Virus record (IMG/VR): IMGVR_UViG_3300014733_000004
Span: 1,182-65,181 of that record
Length of the DNA stretch: 64,000 nucleotides
DNA from: a virus
Lineage: Duplodnaviria; Caudoviricetes
Strand: one strand, 5' to 3'
In this document: piece after piece, positions 25,959 to 51,400 of the stretch
Numbering within the stretch: the first letter of the stretch is position 1
Layout of the letters: each line of letters opens with the position of its first letter
Translations under genes and position numbers: made by a program
Notes under the pieces: model-generated
Database searches by the model: none
What the model was told of the DNA's origin: nothing
What the model saw: the letters and a program-made list of their open reading frames with translations, nothing else

Positions 25959-26025
25959 TGACCCGCGGGGCCGGCGCCGCGAGGTGCCCGGCCCTGGCCC
26001 CATCCCCATCACCTTGGAGGCCAAG

Positions 26026-26505
26026 ATGGCAACCATCCTCAAGAAATTCATCGGCGATCACCAGTTCGGTGGCTTCACCCCCTACGGCAACGTCACGGTG
26101 CTGCGCGCCACGCTGCAGACCCTCGCGAACGGCTCCGTGCTCAACGCCAACTCCACCGCGCCCCTGGCCGTGAACGATGTCGTGGTGCTGCAGACCCTGC
26201 CCCAGGGCTTCGATCTGCATGACCTGCAGATCATCATCTCCGACCACTTCGGCGCGGGCGTGACCGGCTCCGTCGGCTTCCTCTACATCGACGGTGTGGA
26301 CGACGCCACGGCCCCCCAGGACGCGGCCTACTTCGGCGCCGGGCTGGTGCTCAGCGCAGCAGCCCGCCTGCGCACCTCCAGCTCCAAGGCTCCGGTGAAG
26401 CTCGCCAAGGAAGCCTACCTGGTGCTCACGATCACGGGCGCCGCCGTGGCGGAAGTCGGCCGCGCCGATTTCATCGTGACCGGCGAGCGCATCGGGCCGA
26501 AGTAA
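26026..26505 (+). CDS. Capsid decoration/cement-like protein
   Basis: Beta-rich 159 aa directly after the capsid gene. Confidence 0.55.
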   Translation: MATILKKFIGDHQFGGFTPYGNVTVLRATLQTLANGSVLNANSTAPLAVNDVVVLQTLPQGFDLHDLQIIISDHFGAGVTGSVGFLYIDGVDDATAPQDAAYFGAGLVLSAAARLRTSSSKAPVKLAKEAYLVLTITGAAVAEVGRADFIVTGERIGPK

Positions 26506-26573
26506 TCGACCCACGCAGACCGAAGGCCGGGGCCACGCGCCCCGGCTTTTCCCCATACCCCCAGGAGCCTGAC

Positions 26574-27017
26574 ATGAGCCAGACCCAGGACGTTGCCGTG
26601 ACCTACATCGGCAACGACGACCCATTCAAAGACCGCCTCTACCGTTCCGGCCTCACGTTCGCGCGCGGCCAGACGCGCTTGGTGCCCGAAACGCTGGCGG
26701 CGCGCTTCCTTCAGCACACCGACGTGTTCAAGGGGGCGGATGCAGTGGCCGCCGAGGAGGCCGCCCAGAAAGGCGACGCCGCCAAGCAGGCCGACGACAC
26801 CCAGCAGCAGTTGGACGATGGCAAGAAGCGGGAAGACCTGCAACGCGAGCGGGATGATGCCCGCTTCGCACTGCTGGACTCCCTCGAATCCATGGACAAG
26901 CAGGCGCTCCTCGTGTTCGCGGCCGACAAGTTCGGCCAGAAGCTGCACCCCAACACCGGCGAGACCAAGCTGCGCGACATGGTGAAGGGCTTCGTGGACC
27001 AGTACGGGATGCCATGA
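26574..27017 (+). CDS. Hypothetical head-associated protein (147 aa)
   Basis: AGGAG SD; operon position. Confidence 0.7.
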   Translation: MSQTQDVAVTYIGNDDPFKDRLYRSGLTFARGQTRLVPETLAARFLQHTDVFKGADAVAAEEAAQKGDAAKQADDTQQQLDDGKKREDLQRERDDARFALLDSLESMDKQALLVFAADKFGQKLHPNTGETKLRDMVKGFVDQYGMP

Positions 27018-27688
27018 AGCTGGAAGACCTGATTCGCCGCTTCCGCACCCTCGCCAAGGACAAGGTGGAACCCTACCTGTTCGAGAACGAGGACGTGGTC
27101 GACTGGCTCAACGATGCGCAGGCCCAGGCCTGCATTCGTCGTCGGCTCATCCGGGAGGACGCGCTGCCCGCCGTGTGCCGCATTGAGCTGGCCGCGGGGA
27201 AGCACACGTACCCCCTGCATGCGTCCGTCTTCGAGATCATCCATCTGCAGGCCCGGCGCGCGAGTGACAGCCAGCCGCGGCCCATGACCATCGTGACGCG
27301 GGAATGGCTGGAAGCCGAGGTGCCGGGCTGGCGCGACCGCGACTACCCCAGCGATTGGGTCATCCAAGACGACACCACGTTGCGCGTGGTGGGCCGCGTG
27401 GAGAACGGCGAGGTGCTGGAGCTGGAGTGCTACCGCCTTCCGCTGAAGCCCTTCGACGTGGGCAACGACACCGCCAAGCCCGAGATCCACGAGGCGCACC
27501 ACGAGCACCTGATCCAGTGGGCCCTTCACCGGGCGTTCAGCGTGCCTGACACCGAGAGCTTCGACCCCGACCGTGCCGTGCTGGCCGAACGCGCATTCAC
27601 GGCCTACTTCGGCCCGATGCCGGATGCGGACCTCCGACGCGACACGCGCGCCGACGTGCAGCACTTCAACCGCGGGGTGCTGCCGTGA
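27014..27688 (+). CDS. Head-tail adaptor-like protein
   Basis: YLFENEDVVDWLNDAQ...HEAHHEHLIQWALHRAF; position after the head genes. Confidence 0.65.
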   Translation: MKLEDLIRRFRTLAKDKVEPYLFENEDVVDWLNDAQAQACIRRRLIREDALPAVCRIELAAGKHTYPLHASVFEIIHLQARRASDSQPRPMTIVTREWLEAEVPGWRDRDYPSDWVIQDDTTLRVVGRVENGEVLELECYRLPLKPFDVGNDTAKPEIHEAHHEHLIQWALHRAFSVPDTESFDPDRAVLAERAFTAYFGPMPDADLRRDTRADVQHFNRGVLP

Positions 27689-27912
27689 CCGATACCGGAA
27701 CCATGCACATCGACCTGCGTGTGGGCGATTCCCTGCGTGTCGGTGATTCGGTCATCACGCTGGCCAAGAAGGACGGACAGCGCGCGCGCCTCACGGTGAC
27801 GGCCCCGCGCAGCACGCCCGTCATCCGCCCCAACCAACAACCCAGCGCGCAGGAGTGCGCTTCTTCGCCCATTGCGGGCAAGGAGCACACCCATGGCAAA
27901 CACCCTCTATGA
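27685..27912 (+). CDS. CsrA/RsmA-like small protein (alternative start 27703)
   Basis: LRVGDSLRVGD...GQRARLTVTAPRSTPVIR aligns by eye with CsrA RRVGETLMIGD...GNQVRIGVNAPKEVSVHR. Confidence 0.65.
   Translation: MTDTGTMHIDLRVGDSLRVGDSVITLAKKDGQRARLTVTAPRSTPVIRPNQQPSAQECASSPIAGKEHTHGKHPL
27845..27887 (+). promoter_or_regulatory. GGA-loop hairpin plus CAAGGAGCA SD, copy 1
   Basis: GCGCGCAGGAGTGCGC at 27845-27860; identical 16-mer at 36962. Confidence 0.6.
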
Positions 27913-28300
27913 CTTCGCGCGCCAGCGCTTCCTCGAGGCCCAGATCAACTGGATGACCGACACCGTGAAGGTGCTGCTGGTCGACACGGGCGCCTACACG
28001 CCGCAAACCGCCGTCCACCAGTACCTGGCCGACATCCCGGTTTCCTCGCGCGTGGCCGGGCCCGTGACGCTCACGGCCAAGAGCACGGCCGGCGGCGCGG
28101 CCGACGGGGCGGACGTGACCTTCACCAGCGTCTCGGGCCCTTCCATCGAGGCCATCGTCATCTACGTGGACACCGGCACCGAAGCCACCAGCCCGCTCAT
28201 CGCGTACATCGACACGGCCACCGGCCTGCCCATCACCCCGAACGGCGGCGACATCATCGTCACCTGGGACAACGGCACGAACAAAATCTTCAAGGTCTGA
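27893..28300 (+). CDS. Virion structural protein (135 aa)
   Basis: AAGGAG SD; Thr/Gly-rich beta protein. Confidence 0.75.
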   Translation: MANTLYDFARQRFLEAQINWMTDTVKVLLVDTGAYTPQTAVHQYLADIPVSSRVAGPVTLTAKSTAGGAADGADVTFTSVSGPSIEAIVIYVDTGTEATSPLIAYIDTATGLPITPNGGDIIVTWDNGTNKIFKV

Positions 28301-28308
28301 CCCCGCCG

Positions 28309-28605
28309 ATGACCACCAAGCCCCCCACCCAGGTGGCCGGGGTCACGGGCATCGCACCGGCGCCGGTGACGATGAACGAGATCCCGGCATCCGCCATCGA
28401 CTGGAAGGCCGTGGCGAGCCTGCCGCCGTTCCAGATGTTCGCGGGCGAGCGCAGCCGTAACACCAGCGGAAAGGATTCCATGGAACATGCCCTGGACTTC
28501 GTGAAAGCCAAGGGCAGCGGCGCGGACGTGCTCCAGGCCTACGAGGACTGGCACGCGGCCAAGGGCTACTGGCCGAACGAGGACGCCTACGGGCGGGCGC
28601 GCTGA
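28309..28605 (+). CDS. Hypothetical protein (98 aa)
   Basis: TGATG overlap with the next gene. Confidence 0.7.
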   Translation: MTTKPPTQVAGVTGIAPAPVTMNEIPASAIDWKAVASLPPFQMFAGERSRNTSGKDSMEHALDFVKAKGSGADVLQAYEDWHAAKGYWPNEDAYGRAR

Positions 28606-29807
28606 TGCCGATCAAGCTCTACCGCAGCGACCAGGTGGGCGCGCCCGCGCTCAGCGGCACGAACGGCACGTTGATCGCGGTGCTGGACGCATGCCTCGTG
28701 AATGGCTTCGGCCAAGTCAACGTCGCCACGCTCACACGCGTGGGCAACGTCGTCACGGCGGGGTTCATCGCGCCGCACAACCTGAACACCTACGACTGGG
28801 CGACCCTCGCCGGGGCTGACCAGGCCGGCTACAACGGTGAGCACCAGGTGACGCGCGTGGACGCGCTCACGCTGACGTTCGAGGTGCAGGGCGACCCGGT
28901 GACGCCCGGTACCGGCACGATCACCATGCGACGGGCTCCCGCGGGCTTCGCGAAGCCGTTCGCGGCCACCAACAAAGCGGTGTACCAGTCCACCGACCCC
29001 AGCTCCCGTCGACACTTCTTCCGCGTGGTGGACGACGGTACCAGCGGCCTCGGCGCGCGCGCGGCGCGGATCAGGGGCTTCGAGACCATGGCGGGTGTGG
29101 ACGATGGCGCGCTGCCGTTCCCGCCGGGGCACCTGTTCCCGAACGATGGGTTTTGGCTCAACAAGTCGAACTTCCTGGATGCCTACGCGCGGGCATGGAT
29201 CGTCGTGTCGGACGGCAAGACCGTCTACCTCATGATCAGCGGCGGCCGCGGGCCCGCAGACTTCACGGATGACAGCTACGCACAGCTGAACGCCTTCGGC
29301 GAGTATTCGACTTTCGTGCCAGATGCCTACGCATCGTTCGTGTCGGGCATGGAGGGGGAGGACCAGAACTCCTCGAACTGTGGGGTGCTGCGCTCCGCGG
29401 GCACCACGACCCCCAGCCCGCAGGATCGAAACTGCCCGGTCGCCGTGGCCCGGATGTTCAACGCGGCGCCCGGGTCGTACTACGCCGTGGCACACATCGG
29501 CCACGGGATGAACTCGCCCTACGTCATTGGCGAGCGCGTGGCGATCCCGTACCCCAACCTTCCGGACAACCGGTACTACCTGACGCCCGTGCTCATGTAC
29601 GACCCCGGCGGGTACCTCAGGGCGCAGCTGCCCGGGGCCTATGAATCTCTCCATGGCCGCACCCACACGCAGGGCCGCATGCTCGAGAACGTGAACGTGG
29701 TCGGCAAGGAGAAGCATCGGTTCGTGTACCTGGGCGGCCGGGGCGGCAGCACCAGCTACCTCGGCGGCATCTTCGTCGACCTGACAGGCCCATGGGAGGT
29801 GTCCTGA
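28605..29807 (+). CDS. Tail-associated protein, paralogue 1
   Basis: N-terminus MPIKLYRSDQVGAPALSGTNGTL; ends DLTGPW. Confidence 0.7.
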   Translation: MPIKLYRSDQVGAPALSGTNGTLIAVLDACLVNGFGQVNVATLTRVGNVVTAGFIAPHNLNTYDWATLAGADQAGYNGEHQVTRVDALTLTFEVQGDPVTPGTGTITMRRAPAGFAKPFAATNKAVYQSTDPSSRRHFFRVVDDGTSGLGARAARIRGFETMAGVDDGALPFPPGHLFPNDGFWLNKSNFLDAYARAWIVVSDGKTVYLMISGGRGPADFTDDSYAQLNAFGEYSTFVPDAYASFVSGMEGEDQNSSNCGVLRSAGTTTPSPQDRNCPVAVARMFNAAPGSYYAVAHIGHGMNSPYVIGERVAIPYPNLPDNRYYLTPVLMYDPGGYLRAQLPGAYESLHGRTHTQGRMLENVNVVGKEKHRFVYLGGRGGSTSYLGGIFVDLTGPWEVS

Positions 29808-30997
29808 TGCCGGTGAAACTCTTCCACAGCGCCCAGGTGGGCGCGCCGACCCTCACGGGCCAGATAGGGAGCCTGGTCGCGCTGCTGACCGCGTGCCTGG
29901 TAGACGGGTACCCCACGATCACGGTCACATCGGTCACGCGCGACGGCGGGGTGGTGACGGTGGTGACGGAGTCCGCGCACGGCTTCAACACCGGGGACTA
30001 CGCGCGGATCGCGGGTGCATCCGAGGCGGCCTACAACATCGAGACGCTGGTCACGCGCGTGAACGCGACGACGTTCACCTTCGCGGTGACGGGCTCTCCC
30101 GCCACACCGGCTACGGGTACCGTGACCGTCCGCCGCACCTCGGCCGGCTGGGAGCGCGCTTTCACGGGCGAGAACAAGGCGGTGTACCGGGCGAAGTCGG
30201 GGCTGCGCCACTACCTGCGCGTGGTGGACGACGCCAGTTCCGCCGGCGGCGCGCGCGAGGCGCAGCTGCAGGGCTTCCGGACCATGAGCAGCGTGGATGC
30301 CGGTGAAGAGCGTTTCCCCAGCACGGCCCAGAAGGCGGCGCTCTACGCTTACAAGTCCAGCGGCTCCGATGCCAGTTCGCGGCCCTGGGTGCTGATCGCG
30401 GACGAGCGGTTTTTCTACCTGGGCATCCAGGAAGCCGACTCGCCGACGAACAAGCTGTGGTACGGCGGCGGTTTCCCCTACTGGTACACCTTCGGCGAGC
30501 TGGTGGGAACGACCCGCGAGGTGGACCAGTACGCTACCGTGTTGGGCGGCATGGCTGACTCCAACCGCCTGAACGAGAGCGTGTGGAATGGGGCCTTCTT
30601 CCCCATCCGCCGCAACTCCGCCGAGGGCAATTCGGCATCCGGGTACACGCTGCGCGGGGTCGATGAGCTGGAGGGCGCGCCACTGCAGTACAACCTCTGG
30701 GGCCATGGGTGGGACCAGAACTGCCTGGGTGTGGCTGGGTGCCTGACCTACCCCCACCGAACGGACAACGGGTTCTACCTGGCACCGGTGCGCATGGCGC
30801 AGCAGAACACTATCCGCGCCGCCATGCCCGGGCTCTACGAGTCCCTGCATGGCACCGCAGGCGGCCTGGTGACCAACTGGTCCGAGTTCAACGGGTCCAT
30901 CGTCGGGCTGGAAGGGCGGCGGCTCATTTGCTTCCACGCCCGATGCTACGACCAGATCGGGCTGCTGGGATTCGACGTGACGGGGCCCTGGCGCTGA
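29807..30997 (+). CDS. Tail-associated protein, paralogue 2
   Basis: N-terminus MPVKLFHSAQVGAPTLTGQIGSL; ends DVTGPW; clearly homologous to the preceding gene. Confidence 0.7.
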   Translation: MPVKLFHSAQVGAPTLTGQIGSLVALLTACLVDGYPTITVTSVTRDGGVVTVVTESAHGFNTGDYARIAGASEAAYNIETLVTRVNATTFTFAVTGSPATPATGTVTVRRTSAGWERAFTGENKAVYRAKSGLRHYLRVVDDASSAGGAREAQLQGFRTMSSVDAGEERFPSTAQKAALYAYKSSGSDASSRPWVLIADERFFYLGIQEADSPTNKLWYGGGFPYWYTFGELVGTTREVDQYATVLGGMADSNRLNESVWNGAFFPIRRNSAEGNSASGYTLRGVDELEGAPLQYNLWGHGWDQNCLGVAGCLTYPHRTDNGFYLAPVRMAQQNTIRAAMPGLYESLHGTAGGLVTNWSEFNGSIVGLEGRRLICFHARCYDQIGLLGFDVTGPWR

Positions 30998-31800
30998 TGG
31001 CTGCGCACCGGTACTGGCGGCTCAGGAACCTGGCCACCTCCTACTTCACCTGCACCGAGCTGCAGATGCGCGAGGTGGCGGGCGGCCCCAACGTCGTTGG
31101 CGGCGGAACGCCCATCGCTTCATCCGTCTACCAGGGAACCTACCTGACTGCGCGCGCTTTCGACGGCAACACCGGCATGCCCGAGTGGCATTCCGATGGC
31201 GCGGGCGCCGGCAACAACTGGCTGGGCTACGACTTCGGTGCCGGCAACGCCAAGGACATCGTGCAGATCGTCTACTCGCAGCGCAGCGAGGCCTCGTGGT
31301 CCCCCAACAGCTGGGCGTTCGAGTACAGCGATGACGGCTCCGACTGGACCACGGCCCGGGTGGGCTCGGGTTCTTTCCCCGCCGACAGCACCACCGTCCT
31401 GGACGTGTTCCAGCTGGACCCGTCGCAGGTCAAGAACCGCCTGTTCCCTCCAGCGTTCCTGGCATACACGCGGCCTTCGCCGGGCACGCCTGCGCAGCCG
31501 GTGTTCAATCCGGACTCCCAGTACCGGGAGCGGCCGGGGCTGCAGTTCGTCGGCATGATGGGGCTCAACCCGGTCTACAAGCTCGCGGGCTCCACTACCT
31601 CCCTGGGTGATCCCGTGCCGCGGCGCGTGCGCCTCTACAACCAGCGCGACGGGCGGCTGGCGCGGGAGCAGATCACGGCGGAGGATGGCGCTTTCGAGTT
31701 CACCCACATCGAGCAAGGCCCGTGGCAGGTGGTGGGCGTGGATGACACGGGCGCGCAGAACGGCGTCATCTACACCCACGTGCTGGCCGTGCTGATGTAG
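30997..31800 (+). CDS. Tail protein with discoidin (F5/8 type C)-like domain and C-terminal beta-sandwich
   Basis: AFDGN...W...NNWLGYDFG...FEYSDDGSDWTT pattern. Confidence 0.65.
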   Translation: MAAHRYWRLRNLATSYFTCTELQMREVAGGPNVVGGGTPIASSVYQGTYLTARAFDGNTGMPEWHSDGAGAGNNWLGYDFGAGNAKDIVQIVYSQRSEASWSPNSWAFEYSDDGSDWTTARVGSGSFPADSTTVLDVFQLDPSQVKNRLFPPAFLAYTRPSPGTPAQPVFNPDSQYRERPGLQFVGMMGLNPVYKLAGSTTSLGDPVPRRVRLYNQRDGRLAREQITAEDGAFEFTHIEQGPWQVVGVDDTGAQNGVIYTHVLAVLM

Positions 31801-31809
31801 GGGCCGCCG

Positions 31810-34800
31810 ATGGCACTCCCACCAGGCGGGCGGATCATCCTCGCGTTCGGCGTGCCGGGCGCGCCACCCGCGGGCGATAGGGTCGGGCTCGACTTCGCCC
31901 CGCGGCCGCGGCAAGACCCGTTCTACGTCGGCCTGAGCGACCAGGGCGGCATGGGCGCGCCTGGGGTGCGCTTCAAGTCGCGGCTGATCCAGCACGCGAC
32001 GGCCGGCGCCGGGGGCGGCGTGGGGATGCCCGGCATCGAGAAAGAGGCCCAGCGCATCACGGCAGCCGGCTGGCTGTCGGGCGCCGTGCCCGCTCCGACC
32101 TATGTGCGGTGGCGCCGGTTCATCACCCCCGCCAGCTGGGCCGCCAACGACACCCCGCCCGTGCCGTCCCTGCGCCTGGCGGGCGGCTACCAGCCGGCCC
32201 CTGGCTCCCACATCACGTTGAACTTCGCCGAGCCGCTGGCGCCTCCGCCTGGTTCGTCGGTGGTGCTGGAATTCGGCGCGGTAGGCTACGGGCGTGTTCT
32301 CGGTGCGACCGTGGGCATGGCCGGCGGCGTGGGCGAACCCGGGGTGTTCAAGCCCCAGCAGGTCCGCCCGGCCGGCATCCCGTCCGCGGCGGTGGTGGGC
32401 GCGCCATTCGTTGAGGGGAGCATTCGCAACGTGCGGCCCCAAGGCGTGGCAACCGTCGCGCCGAGCCGCCCGACCGTGCGCAATTCGGCCGTGCCGCTAC
32501 GCCCAGCGGGTTTCGACGCACATGCGGCGGGCGAGCCGCGAGTGTGGAACTGGTGTCAGTACGTACCGGTCGGCGGCTTCTACGCGGCGCTGTTCGGCAC
32601 TGCCTACGTGCAGGGTGGGGTGAAGACCGTGCTGCTGGACGGGCTCGCCAGCGCGGCCTACGGCACGGTCAACGTCATCAACACCACCGCGAACCGGTCC
32701 GTGGCGCCGCGAGGCATCGAGCCGCCGGGGATCCCGACGCCCAACGTCTCGCCGCGCTTCGTGCTCCCGCAGGGACTGTTCGCGGCAGGCATGGGCACGC
32801 CCCTGGTGCAGCCCAATCCCCACCCGGCCGGCTGGGGCTCGGCGCTCTATGGCACGCCGCGGATCTACTACCGGACGCGGTTCCTGCGACCGGCGGGTAT
32901 CGACGCCTACGCGCCAGGCTACCCACGGGTGGGCGACTGGGCGCAGCGCATCCTTCACGCCGCGTCACCCGTCACCGCCGTGTTCGGTGATACCGCCGTC
33001 CGGCTCAAGAACCTGCGGACCCGCCCGGCTGGCTTCACGGGCATGGAGGTGTCGCCCTGGGCCGAGGTGCGCAACCTCAATCGGTGGGTGCGCGCCGCCG
33101 GCATCGCGCCGGCCGCCGTGGGCGCGCCCGCAGGGCGCAATGCCACGCCTTCGTTCGCGCCGCCGGGATTCATCGCCACGCGGTTCGGCGCGGCAGGTGT
33201 GGGTGCGAGGATTCGATATGTCACGCCCACAGGGGTCACGCTGCCCGTGGCGCAGGTGGCCGGGCCGTCCCTGTGGAAGACGCCCGACTTCAAGCCGGAT
33301 GGTATCGAGGCGCCCGCAGTTCCACCGCCAGCGGTCACGAACGGACGCCGGTACCTGCTGGGGCAGGGTGCAGCGATGGCGCGGCACGGCACACCCACGG
33401 TGGGGTTCGCCTACCGATGGATCGCGCCCGAGGGGCTTGCAGCCTTCCAGCCCGGTGTCGGCCGCATCGACCACGGCAACCGCGAGCTGCTGGTGGCCGG
33501 GTTCAGCGACAACGCCTACGGTACGGGCTGGGCCAGCTTCGCGCGTCGCGCCCTCGCGCCAGCCGGCTTCCGGACCATCCAGGGCGCGAACCACGCGGTG
33601 GCGGGCTCGCGGTTCCTGCGGCCCGACGGCTTCGTGGCCACGCGATGGGGCACGCGGATCATTCCCGAAGCCCGGGTGGTGTACGCGCTCGGTTTCGCCG
33701 GGATGGTCGGATGGCCCGCCGTGGCGAACCGGCGCCAGTACCTCGCGCCATCGAGCATCCGCCTGTACGCGGAGCCGCAGCAGCATTTCGGCTCGGCCCG
33801 CACGTGGAACCTTCGGCAGCACGTGACCATGTTCCCCGACGTGGACAGCGACCTGAACCCGCCGCGGTGGTCCCAGTGGACGCGGATCGAGAACCGGAAC
33901 AAGCTGCTCGGCGTCACCGGCACCCTTATGACCCGCTATGGGGCCGTGCAGGTGGACAACAAGGCGCGGCAGATCCTGCCGGCCGGGACGGCGGCGCCTG
34001 CGCTGCCGGGGTACCAGCGCGCCGGCATGGTGGCCTACCGCATCCGCGGTCTGCCCCTGCGCGGAATCGAAGCACCGCACCTGAGCACCTGGGCCAACGT
34101 GCGCAACGCGGCGCGCCTGGTGCACCCGCCGGGGCTGGACGCGCAGGCCTTCGGCTCGGCCGGTGCCGTGAACCGAACACGCGTGTTCAACCGCATCGGG
34201 AATTTCGACGCGGCGGTGCTGGGCTACCCGTTCATCGCACCCCGCGTTCGCTCGCTGGGCATCGAGGCGCGCTACACCATCGCCCCTCCCGTCGTCCCGG
34301 TGGCCCGCGTGCAGCTGCGCAGCCGGTACCTGGGCCCGCGCGCCATCGGAAATCCTGAGGTGGGTGCGGCGGCGCTCACCATCCACAAGAGCATCATCAC
34401 GCCACGGTGGACCCTGCAGAACTTCTACGGCTTCCCCGTGGTGCGCAACGTGACCCCCGAGGTGCGAGGAAAGGGGTACGTGATGGAGCTGTGGGGCGAC
34501 AACCGCGTGAGGTTGCAGTGGCGGCCGCTGGCGCCGGTAGGCACGAATACGGCGCTGTTCGGACGGACCACCATCGCCGACCGCCGGCGGACGATCTTCC
34601 TGGCGGGCTGGAGCAGCATGGCGGTGAGCGACAAGCTGGAGGTGGTGCGCACGGGCACTCCGCCGCTTGCCACCCAGTACATCTGGCTGGACTCCCAGGA
34701 TCCCAGCGGCGATCCGGAAGCCGGGTTCGGCATCAAGGTGCCCGCCGAGCAGGTGCCTGTCCCGAGCCTGCAGCAACAGGTGGTCTACCCGTCCGGCATG

Positions 34801-35763
34801 GACACGGTCGGGAACTTCGGTTCGCCGACCGTGACCGCGAACTCCATCCGCGTGGAGCCCGGGTACTTCGACCTGCTGGTGGGGGAGCCTGTCGTGGACT
34901 TCTGGCGCCGGACGCTCACGGCGAAGGGGATCGCCTCGACGTCGACGCCGGGCAAGCCGCGATTGAGCCCGCACACGATCTGGGCCGTGGTGGACGCTCC
35001 AGAACAGGCCGTGCTGAACCACCCGGAAAGCCGGCAGGAGCTGGTCCGGTCGGAGGTCACATTCGGAAATCCTGCCCTCGAAAACCGGCACCGGATCGTC
35101 GCGGCCGCTGGCACGGCGCCGCCCGCCTTCGGGATCACCGATGTGGTGAACCGCCGTCAGTACCTTCGGCCCTCCGGAACCCACTCGGCCCGGTTCGGAT
35201 GGCTCACCGTTCCGGGCCCCATCCACGTGGAGTTCTTCACGACCATCAGCACCATGGCCATGGGGCAGCCGACAGTCGCGCGCCCACCCCAGCTGGGACC
35301 GCAGACCGTGATGGGGCAGGGCTTCGTGGCGGCCACGCTCGGGCAGGCCCGGCTGGAGCTTTTCCACCGTGCCATGCCCGTCCAGGGGTTCGAGGCTACG
35401 GCGATGGGGTTTTCGCGGCGGCCCGACGCGCCATTCATGTGGCAGAGCCTGCGCGTGGGCGAGCGGGTTCCGAACGTCGCCGAAGGGTTCGACGCCGCGC
35501 GCTTCGGCGCCACGTGGATCTCGCACCGGGTTCGGCAGGTGGCGGTCGAAGGGTTTGATTCCTTCGTCATGGAGTACGACTATCGGGCCTTCGCGCTGCG
35601 CATGCGCGTGCGCAACGCCACCGGCACCGAGCGCCCCCGCCAGATCGTGCTGCCGCGCGGCGACCGCATGGAGCTGGTGGGCACGCCCGGCGCGCGGCTC
35701 GGCGTGCACTACATCCGCCCGGACGGGAACGCAGACCAATACCGCAAGGGAGCCCCCTCATGA
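31810..35763 (+). CDS. Large virion protein (1317 aa) with degenerate RPxG/GxPxV repeats
   Basis: Long ORF with repeated RPAG...GxPxV units. Confidence 0.7.
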   Translation: MALPPGGRIILAFGVPGAPPAGDRVGLDFAPRPRQDPFYVGLSDQGGMGAPGVRFKSRLIQHATAGAGGGVGMPGIEKEAQRITAAGWLSGAVPAPTYVRWRRFITPASWAANDTPPVPSLRLAGGYQPAPGSHITLNFAEPLAPPPGSSVVLEFGAVGYGRVLGATVGMAGGVGEPGVFKPQQVRPAGIPSAAVVGAPFVEGSIRNVRPQGVATVAPSRPTVRNSAVPLRPAGFDAHAAGEPRVWNWCQYVPVGGFYAALFGTAYVQGGVKTVLLDGLASAAYGTVNVINTTANRSVAPRGIEPPGIPTPNVSPRFVLPQGLFAAGMGTPLVQPNPHPAGWGSALYGTPRIYYRTRFLRPAGIDAYAPGYPRVGDWAQRILHAASPVTAVFGDTAVRLKNLRTRPAGFTGMEVSPWAEVRNLNRWVRAAGIAPAAVGAPAGRNATPSFAPPGFIATRFGAAGVGARIRYVTPTGVTLPVAQVAGPSLWKTPDFKPDGIEAPAVPPPAVTNGRRYLLGQGAAMARHGTPTVGFAYRWIAPEGLAAFQPGVGRIDHGNRELLVAGFSDNAYGTGWASFARRALAPAGFRTIQGANHAVAGSRFLRPDGFVATRWGTRIIPEARVVYALGFAGMVGWPAVANRRQYLAPSSIRLYAEPQQHFGSARTWNLRQHVTMFPDVDSDLNPPRWSQWTRIENRNKLLGVTGTLMTRYGAVQVDNKARQILPAGTAAPALPGYQRAGMVAYRIRGLPLRGIEAPHLSTWANVRNAARLVHPPGLDAQAFGSAGAVNRTRVFNRIGNFDAAVLGYPFIAPRVRSLGIEARYTIAPPVVPVARVQLRSRYLGPRAIGNPEVGAAALTIHKSIITPRWTLQNFYGFPVVRNVTPEVRGKGYVMELWGDNRVRLQWRPLAPVGTNTALFGRTTIADRRRTIFLAGWSSMAVSDKLEVVRTGTPPLATQYIWLDSQDPSGDPEAGFGIKVPAEQVPVPSLQQQVVYPSGMDTVGNFGSPTVTANSIRVEPGYFDLLVGEPVVDFWRRTLTAKGIASTSTPGKPRLSPHTIWAVVDAPEQAVLNHPESRQELVRSEVTFGNPALENRHRIVAAAGTAPPAFGITDVVNRRQYLRPSGTHSARFGWLTVPGPIHVEFFTTISTMAMGQPTVARPPQLGPQTVMGQGFVAATLGQARLELFHRAMPVQGFEATAMGFSRRPDAPFMWQSLRVGERVPNVAEGFDAARFGATWISHRVRQVAVEGFDSFVMEYDYRAFALRMRVRNATGTERPRQIVLPRGDRMELVGTPGARLGVHYIRPDGNADQYRKGAPS

Positions 35764-36950
35764 AGACCTTCAAGATGCACCCGTTGGCGGGGATCGACAA
35801 CGCCTCCACCCACGACGATGCGCTGCAGATCGGCGGCCAGGAGCGGCGCCTGTTTCTGCGCGATGCGGTGAACGTGGACATCAGCGAAAACGGGCGTGCG
35901 AGCATGCGGCCCGGGCTGCGCAAGGTGTCGCCGCTGGCACTCTCCAGCCTGTGGCAGAGCCCCCTGCATGGCGACGTGTTTGGGGCGCTGGGCGGCGACT
36001 GGGTGAAGGTGGATCCGCTCACCTGGAGCACGCAGCCGCTGGCCGCCATCGGTGGCCCTGACCTCTCGCACCTGGTGCTGAACAACGTGGTGCTGGTGGC
36101 TGGCCCGGCGGGCCTGTTCCAGTTCAACGGCCAGGGTGCGCAGCGGTTCACCCTCGATCGCCCGCCCGCGCCCATGGTGGCGGCTGGCGCGGGCTCCCTG
36201 GAGCCGGGCGCCTATGGCGTAGCGGTGGCCTGGCTGCGCGGCGCCATGGAATCGCCCCTGTCGCCCATGACCACGTGCACGGTGGGCGCGGCCGGGGCGC
36301 TGTCCATCACGCTGCCCCTGTGCCTGGACCAGAGCGTCACGCACGCGCGCCTGTACCTCACCCGGCAGAACGGCGGCGAGCTGGCGCGGGCCGAGGACTA
36401 CCCCATCGGACTGCTGCAGGTGGAGCTTCCCCTGCTGCCCCAGCTCGGCGCGGCGGCGCAGTTCCAGCACATGGAGCCCATGCCCACCGGGCAGTTCCTG
36501 AGCTACTGGCGCGGGCGGCTGGTGACGGCGCGGGCCAACATGCTGCGCTTTTCCGAGGCCATGGCCTACCACCTGCACGACCCGCGGCACGGCTTCGTGC
36601 AGCTGCCGCAGCGCATCACGTTCGTGTTCCCGGTCGATGGCGGCCTGTGGGTCGGCCAAGTCGACCACGTCCTGTTCCTGCGGGGCTCCGAGCCGGGCGG
36701 CCTGGCGCTCGAGCGCAAGACCAGCAAGGCGCCCGTGCCGGGCAGCGCGGTGGCGATCGATGCGGAGACGGCTGGCGAGCTGTCCGGAGGCGGCCAGGCG
36801 GCGCTGGCGTGGCTGGCGGAGAACGGCTACGTGCTCGGCACGCCCGACGGGTCGGTGGTGGAGACGCGGGCAGGGCGCCTGCGCGGCATCACGGGGCAGC
36901 GCTCGACCAGCATAGTGTTTGCAAAGCGCCTGACCACTGCCGTAACCTGA
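35760..36950 (+). CDS. Virion tail protein (396 aa)
   Basis: ATGA overlap; beta-rich; position. Confidence 0.6.
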   Translation: MKTFKMHPLAGIDNASTHDDALQIGGQERRLFLRDAVNVDISENGRASMRPGLRKVSPLALSSLWQSPLHGDVFGALGGDWVKVDPLTWSTQPLAAIGGPDLSHLVLNNVVLVAGPAGLFQFNGQGAQRFTLDRPPAPMVAAGAGSLEPGAYGVAVAWLRGAMESPLSPMTTCTVGAAGALSITLPLCLDQSVTHARLYLTRQNGGELARAEDYPIGLLQVELPLLPQLGAAAQFQHMEPMPTGQFLSYWRGRLVTARANMLRFSEAMAYHLHDPRHGFVQLPQRITFVFPVDGGLWVGQVDHVLFLRGSEPGGLALERKTSKAPVPGSAVAIDAETAGELSGGGQAALAWLAENGYVLGTPDGSVVETRAGRLRGITGQRSTSIVFAKRLTTAVT

Positions 36951-36961
36951 TCCCTCAATCG

Positions 36962-36999
36962 GCGCGCAGGAGTGCGCCTTGGCCAACCACCAAGGAGCA
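36962..36999 (+). promoter_or_regulatory. GGA-loop hairpin plus CAAGGAGCA SD, copy 2
   Basis: GCGCGCAGGAGTGCGC at 36962-36977; CAAGGAGCA at 36991-36999. Confidence 0.6.
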
Positions 37000-37003
37000 T
37001 TCC

Positions 37004-37582
37004 ATGAACCTGCAGCACGAGATCGCGCGCGAGATCCGCGCCGAGCGCTACGACCTCACGCCCGAAGGGCTGTACCTGCCCCGCCTGGGCGCCATCGCCG
37101 CGGGCGAATACTTCGGCCGCGTCAACGGCGGGGCCTGGGAGAAGGAGGGCGACAACCTGATCGTGACCGAGGGCTTCGCGCACATGCTCAACGTGGCGTT
37201 CGGCAGCACCGCCAAGCCCGCCGGGTACTACCTGGCCATCTTCTCGGGCAACACGAACCCAGCTGCGAACTGGACCGCCGCGTCTTTCGCCGCCGTCGCC
37301 AGCGAGATCGTCAGCCTGACCGAGGGCCACACCGGCGCCACGCGCCCGGCCTGGACCACCGCGAACACCACCACGGGCAGCATCGACAACATGGCAACCG
37401 TGGCTACGCTGACCATCGCCACGGCCTCGCAGCTGAACGTGACCGGGGCGGCCCTGCTGACCAGCAACCAGCGCGGCGGCACCACGGGCGCCCTGGTATC
37501 GGCATCCCTCTACGCCGCACCGCGCACGTTCCAGAACGGCGACACCTACGACCTCGGCTACCGGCTGAACCTCACCAGCTGA
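37004..37582 (+). CDS. Virion structural protein (192 aa)
   Basis: NLIVTEG...YYLAIFSG; Thr/Ala-rich. Confidence 0.75.
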   Translation: MNLQHEIAREIRAERYDLTPEGLYLPRLGAIAAGEYFGRVNGGAWEKEGDNLIVTEGFAHMLNVAFGSTAKPAGYYLAIFSGNTNPAANWTAASFAAVASEIVSLTEGHTGATRPAWTTANTTTGSIDNMATVATLTIATASQLNVTGAALLTSNQRGGTTGALVSASLYAAPRTFQNGDTYDLGYRLNLTS

Positions 37583-37586
37583 CCCG

Positions 37587-40172
37587 ATGCACCAGCCCCG
37601 CCCACATGGCACCTTCGGGGCTGCTACCGAGGAGGATGCCGCGGCGGCCGAGCTGCTGGCGCGGCGCCTCACCAACCTCAAGCAGCAGTCCGGTCTGAGC
37701 AGCCTGCGCATGGCGCGCACGCTGCCCAGCGGAGCCATTGCCATCGCCCAGGACATGGGCGGGGTGTTCAAGGTCATCATCCAGCCGCGCATCGTGGAGC
37801 AGCCCGCGGAGGCCGGCGCCGACGGCCTCGCCAGCAGCTACATCCCCATGATGTTCTCGGGCGCCATCGACCGCGGCACCGCGCTGCATGGAGAGGGTAT
37901 CCGGGTGCGGCTGACAGCCGAGACGCGCCGGCGGCTGGGCGGCTACGACCCGAAGCGCGCCGCCGCGGTGGCCGACACGCAGGTGCTGCAGCGGTTCGTG
38001 ATCGAGCTGTCGCAGCGCTTCTTCGAGCTGATGCCGATCCCGCCGCCCGAGACGTACACCTTCACCCAGTACGCGAACCTGCGCCCCACCTGGTACAGCG
38101 GGGCGATGGCCGAAGTGGTGCAGATCGTGGGGGGATATGGCCGGCTGGCTCTGAACGAACTGCCGGACACGCCCGTCGAGCGCGCGCGCATGGCGCTACC
38201 GCCCGGTGTCACGCGCGCGATCGAGCAGCAGCTGGGGAACCGGCGGTTGCCGGGCTACACCGGTTTCCCGCCGATCGACGGGCAGATCCGCTACGACTAC
38301 AAGTTCAACGAGACCCACGGTGTGGGCTTCGACACGAAGCAGCGCCCGTGGCTGCTGCGCGTGGGCCCGGCAGGGGTGTACGCCATGCCGCTGCCGCTCA
38401 TCCCGGCCACGACCACGAAGGCCTTCCGCGAGTTCGTGGAGTACCACGGAGACGACGAGCTGAAATGGGTTCTGGATCGCTTCGGCGGCATGCCCTCGGG
38501 GGAGAGCTTCCCGGCGGTCGCGGCGGACTTCCAGGCCTGGCGCCGGGCGGGAGTGATCGTGAAGGTGTGCGACGTGGGCGACTTCTACCAGCACCTGATG
38601 TACGGGTCCGCGATGGGCTGGAGCTTCAACAGCCGGGGCTCCGAGGGGTTCAACACCTGCTACGACTTCGAGCCCGAGCGGCGGCAGTGCTCCAGCCTGG
38701 CCTACAAGCTCAAGCTGCAGCTGGGAGCGGCCGAGGGTGACGGCAAGCTGCCGCCGTCCTTCGAGGTCAACGACCCGGACGACGCACGGGCACTCAACGC
38801 CTACCTGTCCAAGCTCTACGAGGCCCTTCCCGGCGAGCGTGCCCGTTCGCTCGCCATCAGGTACAAGCTGGGACGCACCCCGGTGGCCGAGATCCTAGAG
38901 CGCGCCGTGGCCGCGCTCCGCACCGGCGCGAACGTGCAGGCGGAGGTGGACTACTGGGACAACCTGGAGGCGCCGCCCATCGCTACCCACGCCGGCAGCG
39001 TGTCGCGCGTGGGGGCAGGGCCGATCGACTGGCAACTGCCCGGGTTCAAGTTCCCGGAGCCCTTCCTGCAAGGGTGCATTTCCTTCGAGGGGCCTGCGCG
39101 CCAGCCAGCCGCGTTCGCGGCGCCGCGCGCGGACACGATCCTGGCCGGCTACTACGTCGGCGACTCCCTGAAGGTGGTCAAGTTCTTCAAGGACGATCGA
39201 GGGTGGTTCCAGGAGGGGCGGAACAACTACGAGGAGTGCATGACGATCGGCTCCTGGGAGCAGACCGTGACCACGGGCAGCTCCACGCTCATGGGCAATT
39301 TCTACACCAGCGACTTCGATGACCGCGAGGCGGCGGCCGACACCACCGAGATCACCCGCATCGTGGGCACCGATCTGGGCTACGACCACACGCCGTTCTT
39401 CTCGTTCGATGACTTTTTCTGGCGGCCGGGGACGTTGTGGCGCAACCGGTACATCAAGCATCGGACCAGCACCGAGACCACCCGTGGCTACTCCCGGGCC
39501 GTGGCGGTGTGCCTGCCGTACCTCGACCGAAACGCCGTGCTGCACGTGCGCTCGGACAGCCACAGCGGGAAGACCACCAGCGAGGCAACCAGCCTGTTTT
39601 CCATCGCCGACCCGTGGACCTACCGGTATTGGACCAACGACTTCATCTGGGCGTGGATCGGAGGTGTGGCCGGGCCGCAGGCCAAGGTGCCGGTGTACCC
39701 GAAGGACGGGAATCCGGTGTGGGTGGTGCAGCAGAACTACGCGCCGGGGGTGTGCAGCGATTTCGCTGACCAGGGCCCATGGATTCCAGGGCTGCCGGCG
39801 GACTTCACCTGGCTGATCCACCCCAACAAGGGCGAATGGCGCCACAGCGGCGGCGGCGGGCCGCCTTCGGTCAACGAAGGCTCCACGTCCACCACGCAGC
39901 CGGGCAGGACCGAGGGGCGCATCAACTTTTCCTCTCTGGGCACACCGCTGACGCTGATGGCGCAGCCCGCGTCAACCTACTTCCTCAAGTCCCCGGACCA
40001 GTATGTGGGAGTTTTCTACCGGGACGCCATCAAGGTGGCGGCAGGGGAGTGCGAATACGCCAGCGTCTCCGAGGCCCACCCGTCCCTCCCAGGCGCGCGA
40101 GCGTTCCAGGGCTGGTGCCGCCTGGCGGACCACAAGGCCGCCCACCACTTCATAGGGGTCATCAATGGCTAG
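37587..40172 (+). CDS. Virion-associated protein (861 aa)
   Basis: Long ORF in the structural operon. Confidence 0.7.
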   Translation: MHQPRPHGTFGAATEEDAAAAELLARRLTNLKQQSGLSSLRMARTLPSGAIAIAQDMGGVFKVIIQPRIVEQPAEAGADGLASSYIPMMFSGAIDRGTALHGEGIRVRLTAETRRRLGGYDPKRAAAVADTQVLQRFVIELSQRFFELMPIPPPETYTFTQYANLRPTWYSGAMAEVVQIVGGYGRLALNELPDTPVERARMALPPGVTRAIEQQLGNRRLPGYTGFPPIDGQIRYDYKFNETHGVGFDTKQRPWLLRVGPAGVYAMPLPLIPATTTKAFREFVEYHGDDELKWVLDRFGGMPSGESFPAVAADFQAWRRAGVIVKVCDVGDFYQHLMYGSAMGWSFNSRGSEGFNTCYDFEPERRQCSSLAYKLKLQLGAAEGDGKLPPSFEVNDPDDARALNAYLSKLYEALPGERARSLAIRYKLGRTPVAEILERAVAALRTGANVQAEVDYWDNLEAPPIATHAGSVSRVGAGPIDWQLPGFKFPEPFLQGCISFEGPARQPAAFAAPRADTILAGYYVGDSLKVVKFFKDDRGWFQEGRNNYEECMTIGSWEQTVTTGSSTLMGNFYTSDFDDREAAADTTEITRIVGTDLGYDHTPFFSFDDFFWRPGTLWRNRYIKHRTSTETTRGYSRAVAVCLPYLDRNAVLHVRSDSHSGKTTSEATSLFSIADPWTYRYWTNDFIWAWIGGVAGPQAKVPVYPKDGNPVWVVQQNYAPGVCSDFADQGPWIPGLPADFTWLIHPNKGEWRHSGGGGPPSVNEGSTSTTQPGRTEGRINFSSLGTPLTLMAQPASTYFLKSPDQYVGVFYRDAIKVAAGECEYASVSEAHPSLPGARAFQGWCRLADHKAAHHFIGVING

Positions 40173-48444: not shown

Positions 48445-51400
48445 ATGAGCGAAATCGACTCCATCCTCAAGGGCGCACCCGAGTACAAGCCCGGCGCGCA
48501 GAGCACCAGCACCGCGCCCCCTGCAGCGCCGCCTTCCGAGATCGATGCTGCCCTGAGCGATGCGCCGACCACCGCGCGCGGGCTCAAGGGATGGGGCCAG
48601 GACATCGCGGCTACCGCGGTGAAAGGCGCCATCGCGGTTCCCGAGGCCGTGGTGGGCCTCGCGGACATCCCCACCGGCGGCCGGGTGGGCAAGTTCCTGG
48701 AGAACGAGGGCGGCGCCGTGGGGTTCCGCCCCAAGCAGGCGCGCGAGGCCGTCAACGAATGGCACTCCGACGCAACCCTGGAGGCACAGCGGAAATTCCA
48801 GGAAGCCGATGGCATCGTGGACAAGGCCGTGACGGCCGTGCAGAACCCCAGCCTGATCGCCACGGCCATCGGGGAATCGCTCCCCTCCATGGGCGCAGGC
48901 GGTGTCGCCGCCCGGGGGCTCCTGACGGCAACGCGCCTGGGGCAGCTGGGGGCCAAGGGCGCCGCGCTCGCCGGGGCTGCCGGGGAAGGTCTGACCATGG
49001 CCGGCTCGCAGGCCGAGCAGATCCGCCAGGAAACTCCGGATGGGCTGCTGACGCCGGGCCAGGCCGGGCTCGCCGCCGCCACCGGTGCTGTGGGGGGCGC
49101 ATTCGGTGCGGTGGGCGGCCGGATCGCGCAGCGCCTAGGCATCGGCGACGCCGAAACGATGCTGGCGCAGGGTCAGAGCGGCATGGCCCGCCAGTTCGCC
49201 GACGAGGCGGCAGGCGCCGCCGTGAACCCGCTGCAGCAGCAGGCCGTGAAGAGCATCCCGCGCCACGTGATCGAGGGCGCGATCGCCGAGGGCCTGCTGG
49301 AGGAGCTGCCGCAGTCCGTCGCCGAGCAGATCTTCCAGAACGTCGCCCTCGACAAGCCCTGGTACGACCAGGTGGACTCGGCCATCGTGCTGGGCACCCT
49401 GTCCGGTGGGGCGATGGGGGCTGGTGCTGCTGGCTACCATGCCGCGGCGCGGCCGCGCGCCGGCGCAGTCGGCGAGAGCGATCCCGCCGCGGCCCTACCC
49501 GCCGGCAACGAACCGGCGGCCGAGGCCCCGGCGCGCAATCCCGGCCTCGAGCGGGTCAGCCAGGCCTTCGCGGAGCAGCTGCGCATGCTGCAGGAGCAGG
49601 AGCAGGGCGAAGTGCTCGGGCCCCAGTCCACGCCGCCGGACGGTGCCGCCGCCCTGGCCGAGCAGCGCGCCACCGCAGAGGCGCAGCGCCAGGCCGACAT
49701 GGAGGCCTCGCGCGCGGTGGAGAGCCCAGACGACGAGATCTACCAGTCCACCGGCGCCGAGGTGCCGCGCTCCGTGCGCATGGGCATCAACCCCGCTGGC
49801 GGCCCGCTGTCCGCTGGCGCCGCCATGGCGGTGGACACCGGCGTGTCCGACCAGATGCAGCAGGCCGCCGCGCTGGCCCAGGCGGCCGAGGCCGCAGAGA
49901 AGGGCGGTAAGGCCCAGAAGCAGGAACAGCCAGAGCGGGCCCCGCAGGGCGCCGACCCGGAGACGGGCGAGATCCCTGGACCCGATGCGGTCGCCAACTG
50001 GAGCGACGCACAGCTGTCCGCGTCCTTCCGCAGCGCCCAGGGCCGCGACGTGCGCATCAAGCTGGCGCAGGAGCTGTCGCGCCGAAAGGCCGCCCGCGCC
50101 GCCGAGCACTCCCCCCCCGTGAAAGGAAGCACCGATGGCTACCAAACCCAGCCAGCAAGCCCCCCACCACCTGCAGGAGCAGCGCAGGCCCCGGCCGTCG
50201 CCGCTGCTGGCGCACCAGCGCAAGGGGCACTGAGCAATGCCGGCACCACGACTGCGGACCCTGGAGCGCAAGGAAAAACAGCGGCTGGCGCGAAAGCAGC
50301 GCCGGAAAGCGCGGACCAGCGCGCCCAGCGCATCGACGCCGCCGGCCAGACCTGGACCCGACTGCCTACCGTGCAGCGCCAGGTGGTGGCCGAGCAGCTG
50401 AAGGGGCTCAAGCCCGTCCTGCAGAAGAACCTCGCCGGCGCGAAATGGGACAACCTGAACGCCGATCTGAAGCGGAAGATCGCCGACCTGATCGCGCCCG
50501 CGCAGGAGGCCGCCGCCGCGCCGGCGCGAGCACGTGCAGCACCCGTCGCCATGGCGCGGGGCACCACGTTCCCGCCGCTGGACGCCCCGCCAGCGCCGGC
50601 TGCCGCCGCGGCGAGTGCGCCGCCGAAGGCTGCTGGCACCAGCGCCCGTCGGGCGCGCGCAGCTGCGGCTCCGGTATCAGCGCCTGCTATGGTGCAAGCC
50701 GCGGCGCAAGAGGCGGCCACCAGCCTGAGCAATGACCTGCCGGAGCCGACGGCGGCGCAGAAGGACGCAGGCAACTACAAGAAGGGCCACGTCAAGGTCA
50801 ACGGCCACGACATCAGCATCGAGAACCCCGCGGGCACGCGCCGCCGCCCCGAATGGCCGCCGCTGCAGAACCACTACGGGTACATCAAGGGTTCCAAGGG
50901 TGCGGACAAGGATCACGTCGACGTGTTCATGACCGACCGGGCGGAGGATGCCGGCCTGCCGGTATTCGTGGTCGACCAGGTGAACCGCGACGGATCTTTC
51001 GACGAGCACAAGGTGGTGATGGGTGCGGCCGACGAGGCCGAGGCTCGCAGCACCTACCTGGGGAACAACGAGAAGGGGTGGACGGGGCTCGGCGGGATCA
51101 CCCGGATGACGCAGGCCGAGTTCAAGGACTGGGTGCGTGACCCTGCCAGAACCGTGAAGCCCGCCGCGGCACCGGTGACCGGCGACGCGTTGCCCCCGGT
51201 GGCGACGGGGGAGGCCGGCCCAGCCCCCGCCAAGGATGCGGAACCAGCACAGGCATCAGCACCAGCGCTGCCGGTTGCGGAGAGCGGATCTTCTGCGCCC
51301 CCGGCGCCCCAGGCGCTGCCGGCTGCGGCGGAGACGGTGCCGCAACGCATGAAGCGCGTGAAGGCGGAAAAGGCCGCCGCGCCTGCAGCACCCGCCGCGG

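Follow-up and report, generated by a model that had tools for sequence, protein, structure and literature searches.

A diverged CsrA-like gene and co-inherited leader hairpins in the late region of an F116/H66-type prophage

The CsrA-like gene and its neighbours

The DNA analysed here (the window) is a 64,000-nt stretch of the IMG/VR virus record IMGVR_UViG_3300014733_000004 (positions 1,182 to 65,181), and our subject is a csrA-like gene in its late region, together with two identical RNA hairpins in the leaders of two virion genes. The window corresponds to the minus strand of contig 29 (122723-186722) in a 4.95-Mb bacterial genome of 69.3% GC, and its own GC content is 69%. Since it lies inside a bacterial contig, it is a prophage, and it is of the F116/H66 (Hollowayvirus-like) podophage type. 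DNA identity of ~75% to the Pseudomonas F116/H66/LKA5 group (Hollowayvirus) extends over the stretch from the capsid to the tail-wing-arm gene, ~9% of a 16-kb query. Gene order follows that of H66, with the adaptor, CsrA-like, PHROG 644, Hc3, and PHROG 8123 proteins corresponding to gp48, gp49, gp50, gp54, and gp55. Coordinates are collected in Table 1.

The csrA-like gene belongs to the structural module of this 60-65 kb podophage, and its GTG start overlaps the stop codon of the adaptor gene (GTGA). It is a member of PHROG 8397, 'CsrA-like regulator' (E 1.1e-15). A profile of 22 family members identifies RsmE (2jpp) as the best match in the PDB (5.4e-6), and the top eight matches are all CsrA/Rsm proteins. 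Fourteen of the 22 members match the Pfam CsrA family at E ≤ 0.1, the best of them at 4e-7. In the AlphaFold2 (AF2) model, computed as a monomer, the predicted local distance difference test score (pLDDT) is at least 90 at residues 1-40, numbered from the ATG start, which form the CsrA β core. Residues 41-69, encoded by the leader of the next gene, are predicted to be a disordered tail (pLDDT ~50), and the C-terminal α-helix of CsrA is not found in the model. Foldseek searches return only CsrA, RsmA, or RsmE among the best 15 matches (probability 1.0, root-mean-square deviation of 1.2-1.4 Å over 43 columns). The CsrA fold, claimed in the initial annotation of this DNA from an alignment by eye, is therefore confirmed by profile, model, and structural comparison.

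The family is large, with 821 clusters at 50% identity (E ≤ 1e-3), and a tblastn search finds 57 phage records. Its invariant motif is K-S-G-Q-x-A-R-L. Leu4 and Arg44 are critical residues of canonical CsrA (PMC7652899); the L4 equivalent is Ile or Val in most family members. The Arg equivalent to R44, to which the initial annotation drew attention, is indeed present in the window protein, but it is not a family trait: relatives carry His, Thr, Ile, Asn, Pro, Leu, or Glu at this position. The prophage gene is the sole CsrA-family match in the host genome. H66 (locus L001 in our set, NC_042342) and F116 each have two CsrA-family genes, an early canonical RsmM-type gene (YP_009638943) and the diverged late gp49; the window and its host genome contain the late type only. 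The H66 and F116 entries in the survey of Sobrero and Valverde (PMC7366521) are the second, canonical csrA of the early region, a gene that the window does not have.

Both genes that follow the hairpins encode tail-appendage, not head-completion, proteins. The profile of gene 1 (PHROG 644) matches 'tail wing arm gp31' (9d93, 1.8e-17), and its homologues are annotated as 'minor tail subunit' in phages 8P and Dartukuta. The profile of gene 2 (PHROG 8123) matches a solved virion 'Structural protein' (26la, 2.7e-16), and its AF2 model (pLDDT 82.7) resembles 8jou_a from the fiber I/fiber-tail-adaptor assembly of phage GP4 with a Foldseek probability of 1.0. No Pfam family was found for either protein, and both were placed by PDB profile search and fold. 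They had been described as two virion proteins of similar size. The virion assignment stands, as homologues of tail-appendage proteins, but at 135 and 192 residues they differ in length and have no detectable mutual homology; the idea that they are paralogues was rejected (hhalign probability 0.15%). The gene starting at 37004 ends at 37582, and the frame from 36979 is a wrong reading. Neither H66 counterpart is among the virion proteins of that phage verified by mass spectrometry.

Table 1. Genes, hairpins, and predicted leader folds of the late region (window coordinates)
Feature	Position	Strand	Details
Head-to-tail adaptor gene, 224 aa	27014..27688	+	Pfam SU10_adaptor 2e-27, PHROG 399; syntenic with H66 gp48
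csrA-like gene	27685..27912	+	75 aa from GTG 27685, or 69 aa from ATG 27703; PHROG 8397
Hairpin copy 1 (site 1)	27844..27861	+	Stem 27844-27850/27855-27861, loop AGGA 27851-27854, apex CGC-AGGA-GUG; 33.2 bits
Predicted fold-back, leader 1	27847..27897	+	Anti-SD GCUUCUU (27859-27865) pairs with SD AAGGAGC (27880-27886)
Downstream gene 1, 135 aa	27893..28300	+	PHROG 644; homologue of solved 'tail wing arm gp31'
Head closure Hc3 gene, 396 aa	35760..36950	+	PHROG 8040, 6e-151
Hairpin copy 2 (site 3, intergenic)	36961..36978	+	Stem 36961-36967/36972-36978, loop AGGA 36968-36971; 32.9 bits
Predicted fold-back, leader 2	36967..37006	+	CCUUGG (36977-36982) pairs with CCAAGG of SD (36990-36995)
Downstream gene 2, 192 aa	37004..37582	+	PHROG 8123; virion structural protein
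SD, Shine-Dalgarno sequence.

Leader hairpins in the window and its relatives

On the + strand, exact copies of the 16-mer GCGCGCAGGAGTGCGC lie at 27845-27860 and 36962-36977, in agreement with the initial annotation. Each copy is followed by the Shine-Dalgarno (SD) sequence CAAGGAGCA, after 18 nt (27879-27887) and 13 nt (36991-36999), and then by the ATG at 27893 or 37004. Copy 1 is inside the 3' end of the csrA-like open reading frame (ORF), again as described, and the Hc3 gene ends 11 nt upstream of copy 2. Both copies form a 7-bp stem closed by an AGGA tetraloop, with energies of -11.2 (copy 1) and -13.7 kcal/mol (copy 2) and z-scores of -3.1 and -3.5 relative to shuffled sequences. A covariance model recovers both at ~33 bits (E ~5e-6), and the next-best match in the window scores 14.8 bits. 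The exact repeat was rejected as evidence by itself, given that the window holds 14 maximal repeat pairs of at least 16 nt; what goes beyond chance is the position, structure, and conservation of the 16-mer. A search of positions 26000-39000 against Rfam at permissive E-values gave no match at the hairpin sites. Scanning 26400-37700 for sigma-70 promoters and terminators found nothing near either site on the + strand, which suggests that both hairpins lie within a long late mRNA. The ATAGGG motifs mentioned in the initial annotation are not close to the hairpins.

Conservation was followed through 97 related loci, comprising H66, IMG/VR contigs, and prophages of Comamonas, Acidovorax, Rhodocyclaceae, Methylotenera, Acinetobacter, and others. 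Three positions carry the hairpin: site 1, before the PHROG 644 gene; site 2, which in many relatives is directly on the SD or start codon of the gene after the tail-wing-arm gene; and site 3, between Hc3 and the PHROG 8123 gene. In an alignment of 41 hairpin instances, 93% of the stem cells are paired. The three inner pairs (C-G, G·U, and C-G) and loop positions 1, 3, and 4 (A, G, and A) are invariant. The four outer pairs covary, with 35 double-change cells compared to 9.2 in shuffled alignments (none of 500 shuffles reaches this value), and the signal collapses in slid-alignment controls. At site 1, the nucleotides are kept while the reading frame across them varies between loci (e.g., SAQECAS, ARRSAL, or ARMSA); this conservation is therefore not protein-coding. 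Two loci have the site 1 hairpin ~500 nt beyond the csrA-like gene. Covariance-model matches in 72 further loci lie almost exclusively on the + (coding) strand (151 of 152). The covariation and the strand bias bear out the proposal of a conserved RNA hairpin in the leaders of the two tail-appendage genes.

These observations leave very little room for a double-stranded DNA site, such as an operator or packaging signal, or for a chance repeat. This GC-rich window has many exact 16-mer repeats, and the motif is an imperfect palindrome, but we consider such an explanation extremely unlikely: the matches are strand-specific, the conserved G·U pair becomes an A-C mismatch on the opposite strand and the fold there is weaker, and the compensatory changes preserve pairing rather than sequence. 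Furthermore, the motif is always located 20-45 nt before a start codon and has been kept from Pseudomonas to Comamonadaceae and Acinetobacter prophages.

The loop follows the pattern A-N-G-A. The second position at site 1 is G in 36 cases, U in 22, C in one, and A in one; at site 3 it is G in 49, U in 11, and A in eight. It differs even between the sites of single phages (e.g., U/G/A or A/G/U), and some phages are without any GGA hairpin. GGA is 100% conserved among the CsrA ligands obtained by SELEX (PMC7652899). The loop GGA of a CsrA-type operator, on which the initial annotation drew, thus does not hold across relatives, where N is free. The recognised element is most likely the hairpin apex CGC-A-N-G-A-GUG with its fixed G·U pair, rather than the GGA triplet. 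A link between the residue at the R44 position and loop N (Arg with G, and His with U, in the clade of the window) was set aside, because single phages mix N between sites.

Site 2 is represented, for example, in loci L001 (15826-15850), L003 (4355-4379), L017 (4268-4292), and L021 (5765-5789). An AGGAG loop there is itself the SD, and an AUGAG loop supplies the AUG start codon. This copy is absent from the window, where 28300-28309 is a bare 8-nt junction. Locus L088 (11215-11269) carries the hairpin doubled in tandem in the spacer between Hc3 and gene 2.

Co-inheritance of the gene and the hairpin

The presence of the csrA-like gene could be scored in 77 of the loci, 66 with the gene (csrA+) and 11 lacking it (csrA-). 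At least one hairpin is found in all 66 csrA+ loci and in none of the 11 csrA- loci, and a protein hidden Markov model (HMM) detects the gene in every hairpin-bearing locus. Covariation of the hairpin with the gene across relatives, named in the initial annotation as a check, is thus observed. Of the csrA+ loci, 58 of 66 have a remote hairpin (site 2 or 3, at a distance of 0.4-9 kb from the gene), as against 0 of 11 csrA- loci (Fisher 1e-8, phylogeny ignored); for site 3, the counts are 54 of 64 and 0 of 9. On a tree built from Hc3 and PHROG 644 proteins, each trait changes nine times, and all six well-supported independent pairs agree (sign test p = 0.031). No other ORF family of the module correlates with the hairpin as well as the csrA-like gene does (phi 1.0 with the HMM); the next reaches 0.43. 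The csrA- relatives have short, plain ribosome-binding site (RBS) leaders instead of hairpin leaders, and their spacer between Hc3 and gene 2 is short with a plain SD. Because gene and hairpin are kept or lost together in ~77 related phages, the phage probably controls the translation of its own tail proteins, although not through the textbook GGA contact.

Most csrA- relatives are from Acinetobacter or other Moraxellaceae. Several (L012, L019, L022, L024, and L025) share a recurrent box, CCCCTGTAGGGTTT, ~60-90 nt before the PHROG 644 and 8123 genes, which may be a promoter or other regulatory element replacing the hairpin leaders.

A related arrangement exists in more distant podophages. In Bcep22, BcepIL02, DC1, Parlo, SopranoGao, Skulduggery, and Itty13, a sigma-70-like promoter comes after the csrA-like gene, and a hairpin then lies in the leader of the major capsid gene. 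This hairpin has the form GCGC-NNGAN-GUGC, with AGGAU, AGGAG, AAGAC, or UGGAU as the loop; the Bcep22 site AGGAUGU equals the 3' half of the CsrA SELEX consensus. In SopranoGao (L032, NC_054966), the capsid-leader hairpin GCTGCGCAAGACGTGCGGCGA is found again, identical, at about record position 2886. There it lies 24 nt before the endolysin gene and 3' of a terminator and a promoter-like stretch; the putative regulon of this phage therefore includes lysis. A second motif match in Bcep22 is inside the giant DarB-like gene and is probably due to chance.

Phages 8P and Dartukuta display the F116-like arrangement. Dartukuta (vB_BspP_Dartukuta, MW749009, L038) is labelled a Bacillus phage, and it has the adaptor/CsrA-like/tail-wing-arm order and the GCGCATGAGTGT hairpin typical of proteobacterial phages; its host label may deserve a check.

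Phage csrA homologues are usually regarded differently. The survey of Sobrero and Valverde covers csrA alleles from 30 phages and emphasises that what they do is unknown (PMC7366521), and the JC1 homologue has been called a moron (PMC9144972). Knock-down of a phage csrA homologue by CRISPRi-ART gave smaller plaques, in a 2025 study stating that its role in the phage life cycle had previously been untested (PMC11879866). The window gene is a member of the same annotated group, 'CsrA-like regulator' or 'carbon storage regulator' (PHROG 8397; Bcep22 gp54, DC1 gp46, JC1 gp47, and H66 gp49), and is syntenic with H66 gp49. Authors have treated them only as putative morons, and in the literature we found no published report of a hairpin, a cognate RNA element, or phage targets for them.

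A moron that mainly reprograms host mRNAs, or a component of the virion, with the hairpins unrelated to either, would agree with the host-directed role assumed in PMC7366521 and PMC9144972 and with the single peptide found in JC1 virions. The initial annotation also considered action on host mRNAs. We see no sign of this: of the 25 occurrences of the 10-nt hairpin core in the host genome, the two in the prophage alone are RBS-proximal hairpins. A good stem is otherwise formed just once, within a LysR-type regulator gene, and is a coding-region look-alike. In addition, the csrA-like gene is located within the late structural operon, is translationally coupled to the adaptor gene, and co-occurs perfectly with the hairpin. 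We therefore regard a role of this kind, detached from the hairpins, as very unlikely.

Leader folding and proposed translational control

Thermodynamic prediction gives each leader a second structure in which the RNA folds back on its start site. In leader 1, the spacer and the UG of the start codon are taken up by pairing with the loop and 3' arm of the hairpin (z -3.3), and the predicted minimum free energy is -27.7 kcal/mol compared to -22.4 kcal/mol when the small hairpin is forced. In leader 2, the pairing partners of the hairpin's 3' part are the spacer GCAUUCC (36997-37003) and the UG of the AUG, and the predicted values are -24.1 to -24.6 and -18.0 kcal/mol, respectively. The fold-back, and not the small hairpin, is the minimum-energy structure in 25 of 33 distinct site 1 leaders and 31 of 40 site 3 leaders, with GCUUCUU, CCUUGG, or CUCCA as the anti-SD. 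For the site 3 leader of 10 relatives, RNAalifold returns the small hairpin with a short anti-SD:SD helix instead, and the fold-back is therefore a prediction without covariation support. Accessibility of the translation initiation region of gene 1 is 0.30 in csrA+ and 0.48 in csrA- loci (p = 0.001, phylogeny ignored); for gene 2, the difference is not significant.

A box in codons 3-6 of the PHROG 8123 gene, CUGCGCA, is conserved in several loci (L002, L004, L011, L042-L045, and others) and is the exact complement of the hairpin 5' arm UGCGCAG. In the minimum-energy fold of several leaders, it makes up the outermost helix; the window reads CUGCAGC, with one mismatch. The box may equally reflect conserved Leu-Arg codons.

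Taken as a whole, we think it fairly likely that the CsrA-fold protein and the hairpins form an operator system on the phage's own late mRNA. The 75-residue product would be a diverged CsrA-fold RNA-binding protein and the two identical hairpins its operators. Each leader would have two mutually exclusive folds, the small hairpin with a short anti-SD:SD helix and the long fold-back burying the SD, spacer, and start codon. Protein bound at the apex would lock the small-hairpin fold, and the locked fold would set the translation level of the tail-wing-arm protein (27893) and the fiber-adaptor-like protein (37004). Both the binding of the protein to the hairpin and the sign of regulation are what we infer from these patterns.

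As to that sign, the predicted burial of SD and AUG makes activation at least as plausible as repression. CsrA is known to activate ymdA (also moaA, and RsmA acts in this way at phz2) by preventing formation of an SD-sequestering hairpin (review PMC7652899). The phage leaders resemble this system in that the predicted fold burying the SD and AUG excludes the putative protein-binding hairpin; they differ in that the alternative fold is a thermodynamic prediction, and RNAalifold gives the small hairpin for the relatives. Every csrA- relative has open leaders instead, which also fits activation. For repression speak the SD GGA at bridging distance and the site 2 copies on the SD or start codon. 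On this analysis we lean slightly toward activation by prevention of the fold-back, as for ymdA, over bridging repression of the glgC type.

Bridging repression is the canonical mode of CsrA. A dimer would bind the loop GGA, bridge to the SD GGA, and keep ribosomes off both tail genes, in the manner of glgC or hcnA. Both window loops are AGGA, and the loop GGA precedes the SD GGA by 30 nt (27852 to 27882) and 25 nt (36969 to 36994). This spacing is within the bridging range of 10-63 nt (PMC7652899) but does not discriminate, because SDs contain GGA anyway. The site 2 motifs of relatives, directly on the SD or start codon, fit occlusion. However, the hairpin GGA is not conserved, with G, U, and A all possible at the various sites of a single phage; the R44 equivalent varies; the leaders are predicted to be closed even without the protein; and the csrA- relatives have lost their structured leaders wholly, which is not required of a mere repressor. 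We regard canonical repression as possible but rather doubtful.

The leaders could also act without any protein, as a fold switch through which translation of the tail genes depends on that of the upstream ORF, or as a signal for processing or stability that merely belongs to the same module as the csrA-like gene. Site 1 is inside the upstream ORF; ribosomes translating this ORF to its stop codon (27910-27912), which lies downstream of the next start codon, would open the fold-back. The Hc3 stop 11 nt upstream of the site 3 hairpin is in keeping with such coupling, as is the outcome of the sign test at site 3 alone, described below. On the other hand, the apex with its G·U pair and the loop A, G, and A are invariant while the lower stem covaries, which points to a sequence-specific ligand. 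In the distant phages, a related apex is associated with other genes and follows promoters, in each case next to a csrA-like gene, and remote sites are lacking in all 11 loci without one. A protein-independent device is therefore improbable.

Several results weigh against the operator system itself. The window protein scores 22 bits against Pfam CsrA (PF02599, E 1.7e-4) and does not reach the gathering cut-off of 27. Many hairpins have UGA, AGA, or CGA in place of the loop GGA, and the R44 equivalent is not conserved across the family although it is critical in CsrA; together, these substitutions mean that the mode of recognition must differ, or that the protein may not be the ligand. Co-occurrence is partly trivial because site 1 adjoins the csrA-like gene. 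Site 3 alone provides two or three informative independent pairs, none of them contrary, and its sign test is not significant. The contrast in accessibility between csrA+ and csrA- leaders is modest. The Ralstonia phages GP4 and Claudette have no recognisable hairpin beside their csrA-like gene. Finally, one peptide of the JC1 homologue was detected in virions (PMC9144972), and the protein may have a structural role.

Comparison with CsrA, RsmA, and RsmE (glgC, hcnA; 2jpp) shows the same protein fold with recognisable sequence homology, and also a similar operator layout, a hairpin with a purine-rich loop (AGGA in the window) 25-30 nt upstream of a GGA-containing SD. The differences are in the details of recognition and in scope. 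The phage hairpins do not conserve the first G of GGA and contain an invariant G·U pair, and their stems are GC-rich and 7 bp long, whereas CsrA SELEX ligands mostly have stems of at most 4 bp. On the protein side, the R44 equivalent is variable and a disordered tail replaces the C-terminal helix. One to three late genes in cis would make up the phage regulon, in contrast to a global host regulon, and we saw no antagonist small RNA.

In the MS2 and PP7 coat-protein operators and in T4 RegA, a small phage protein likewise binds a short hairpin or RBS and tunes phage translation, and in the MS2 operator the start codon is inside the hairpin, as in the site 2 variants. The folds of these proteins are unrelated to that of the CsrA-like protein.

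A broader version of the operator system can be offered only tentatively. The podophage CsrA-fold family, with its 821 clusters, may have left GGA recognition for a CGC-ANGA-GUG (or NNGAN) apex, its members being dedicated activators of the phage's own late genes that keep a bistable leader from burying the start codon. Protein and RNA would then be a portable switch rather than a host-directed moron. F116-like phages would control their tail appendages in this way, and Bcep22- and Lastavirus-like phages their capsid and endolysin.

Annotations of csrA-like genes are widespread in phages, and the usual explanation is a moron that reprograms the host. A conserved cis-element inherited along with them would give these genes a concrete and testable job, the control of translation of a few virion or lysis genes. 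A natural CsrA-fold protein with GGA-independent RNA specificity would help in understanding how RNA is read by this fold and could serve as an orthogonal translational switch. Since the host has no CsrA of its own, the protein-hairpin pair can be studied free of cross-talk.

Two features elsewhere in the window deserve mention. After the tail genes, a 3123-residue ORF occupies 48445-57816, and its Bcep22 and SopranoGao counterparts are annotated as DarB-like antirestriction (polyvalent) proteins. The sequence GGTGCAGATGGCGCACC is repeated three times in direct orientation at 13896, 13951, and 13992 (window 13896-14009), just before and inside a small ORF (13898-14068), and looks like an operator or iteron array of the early region.

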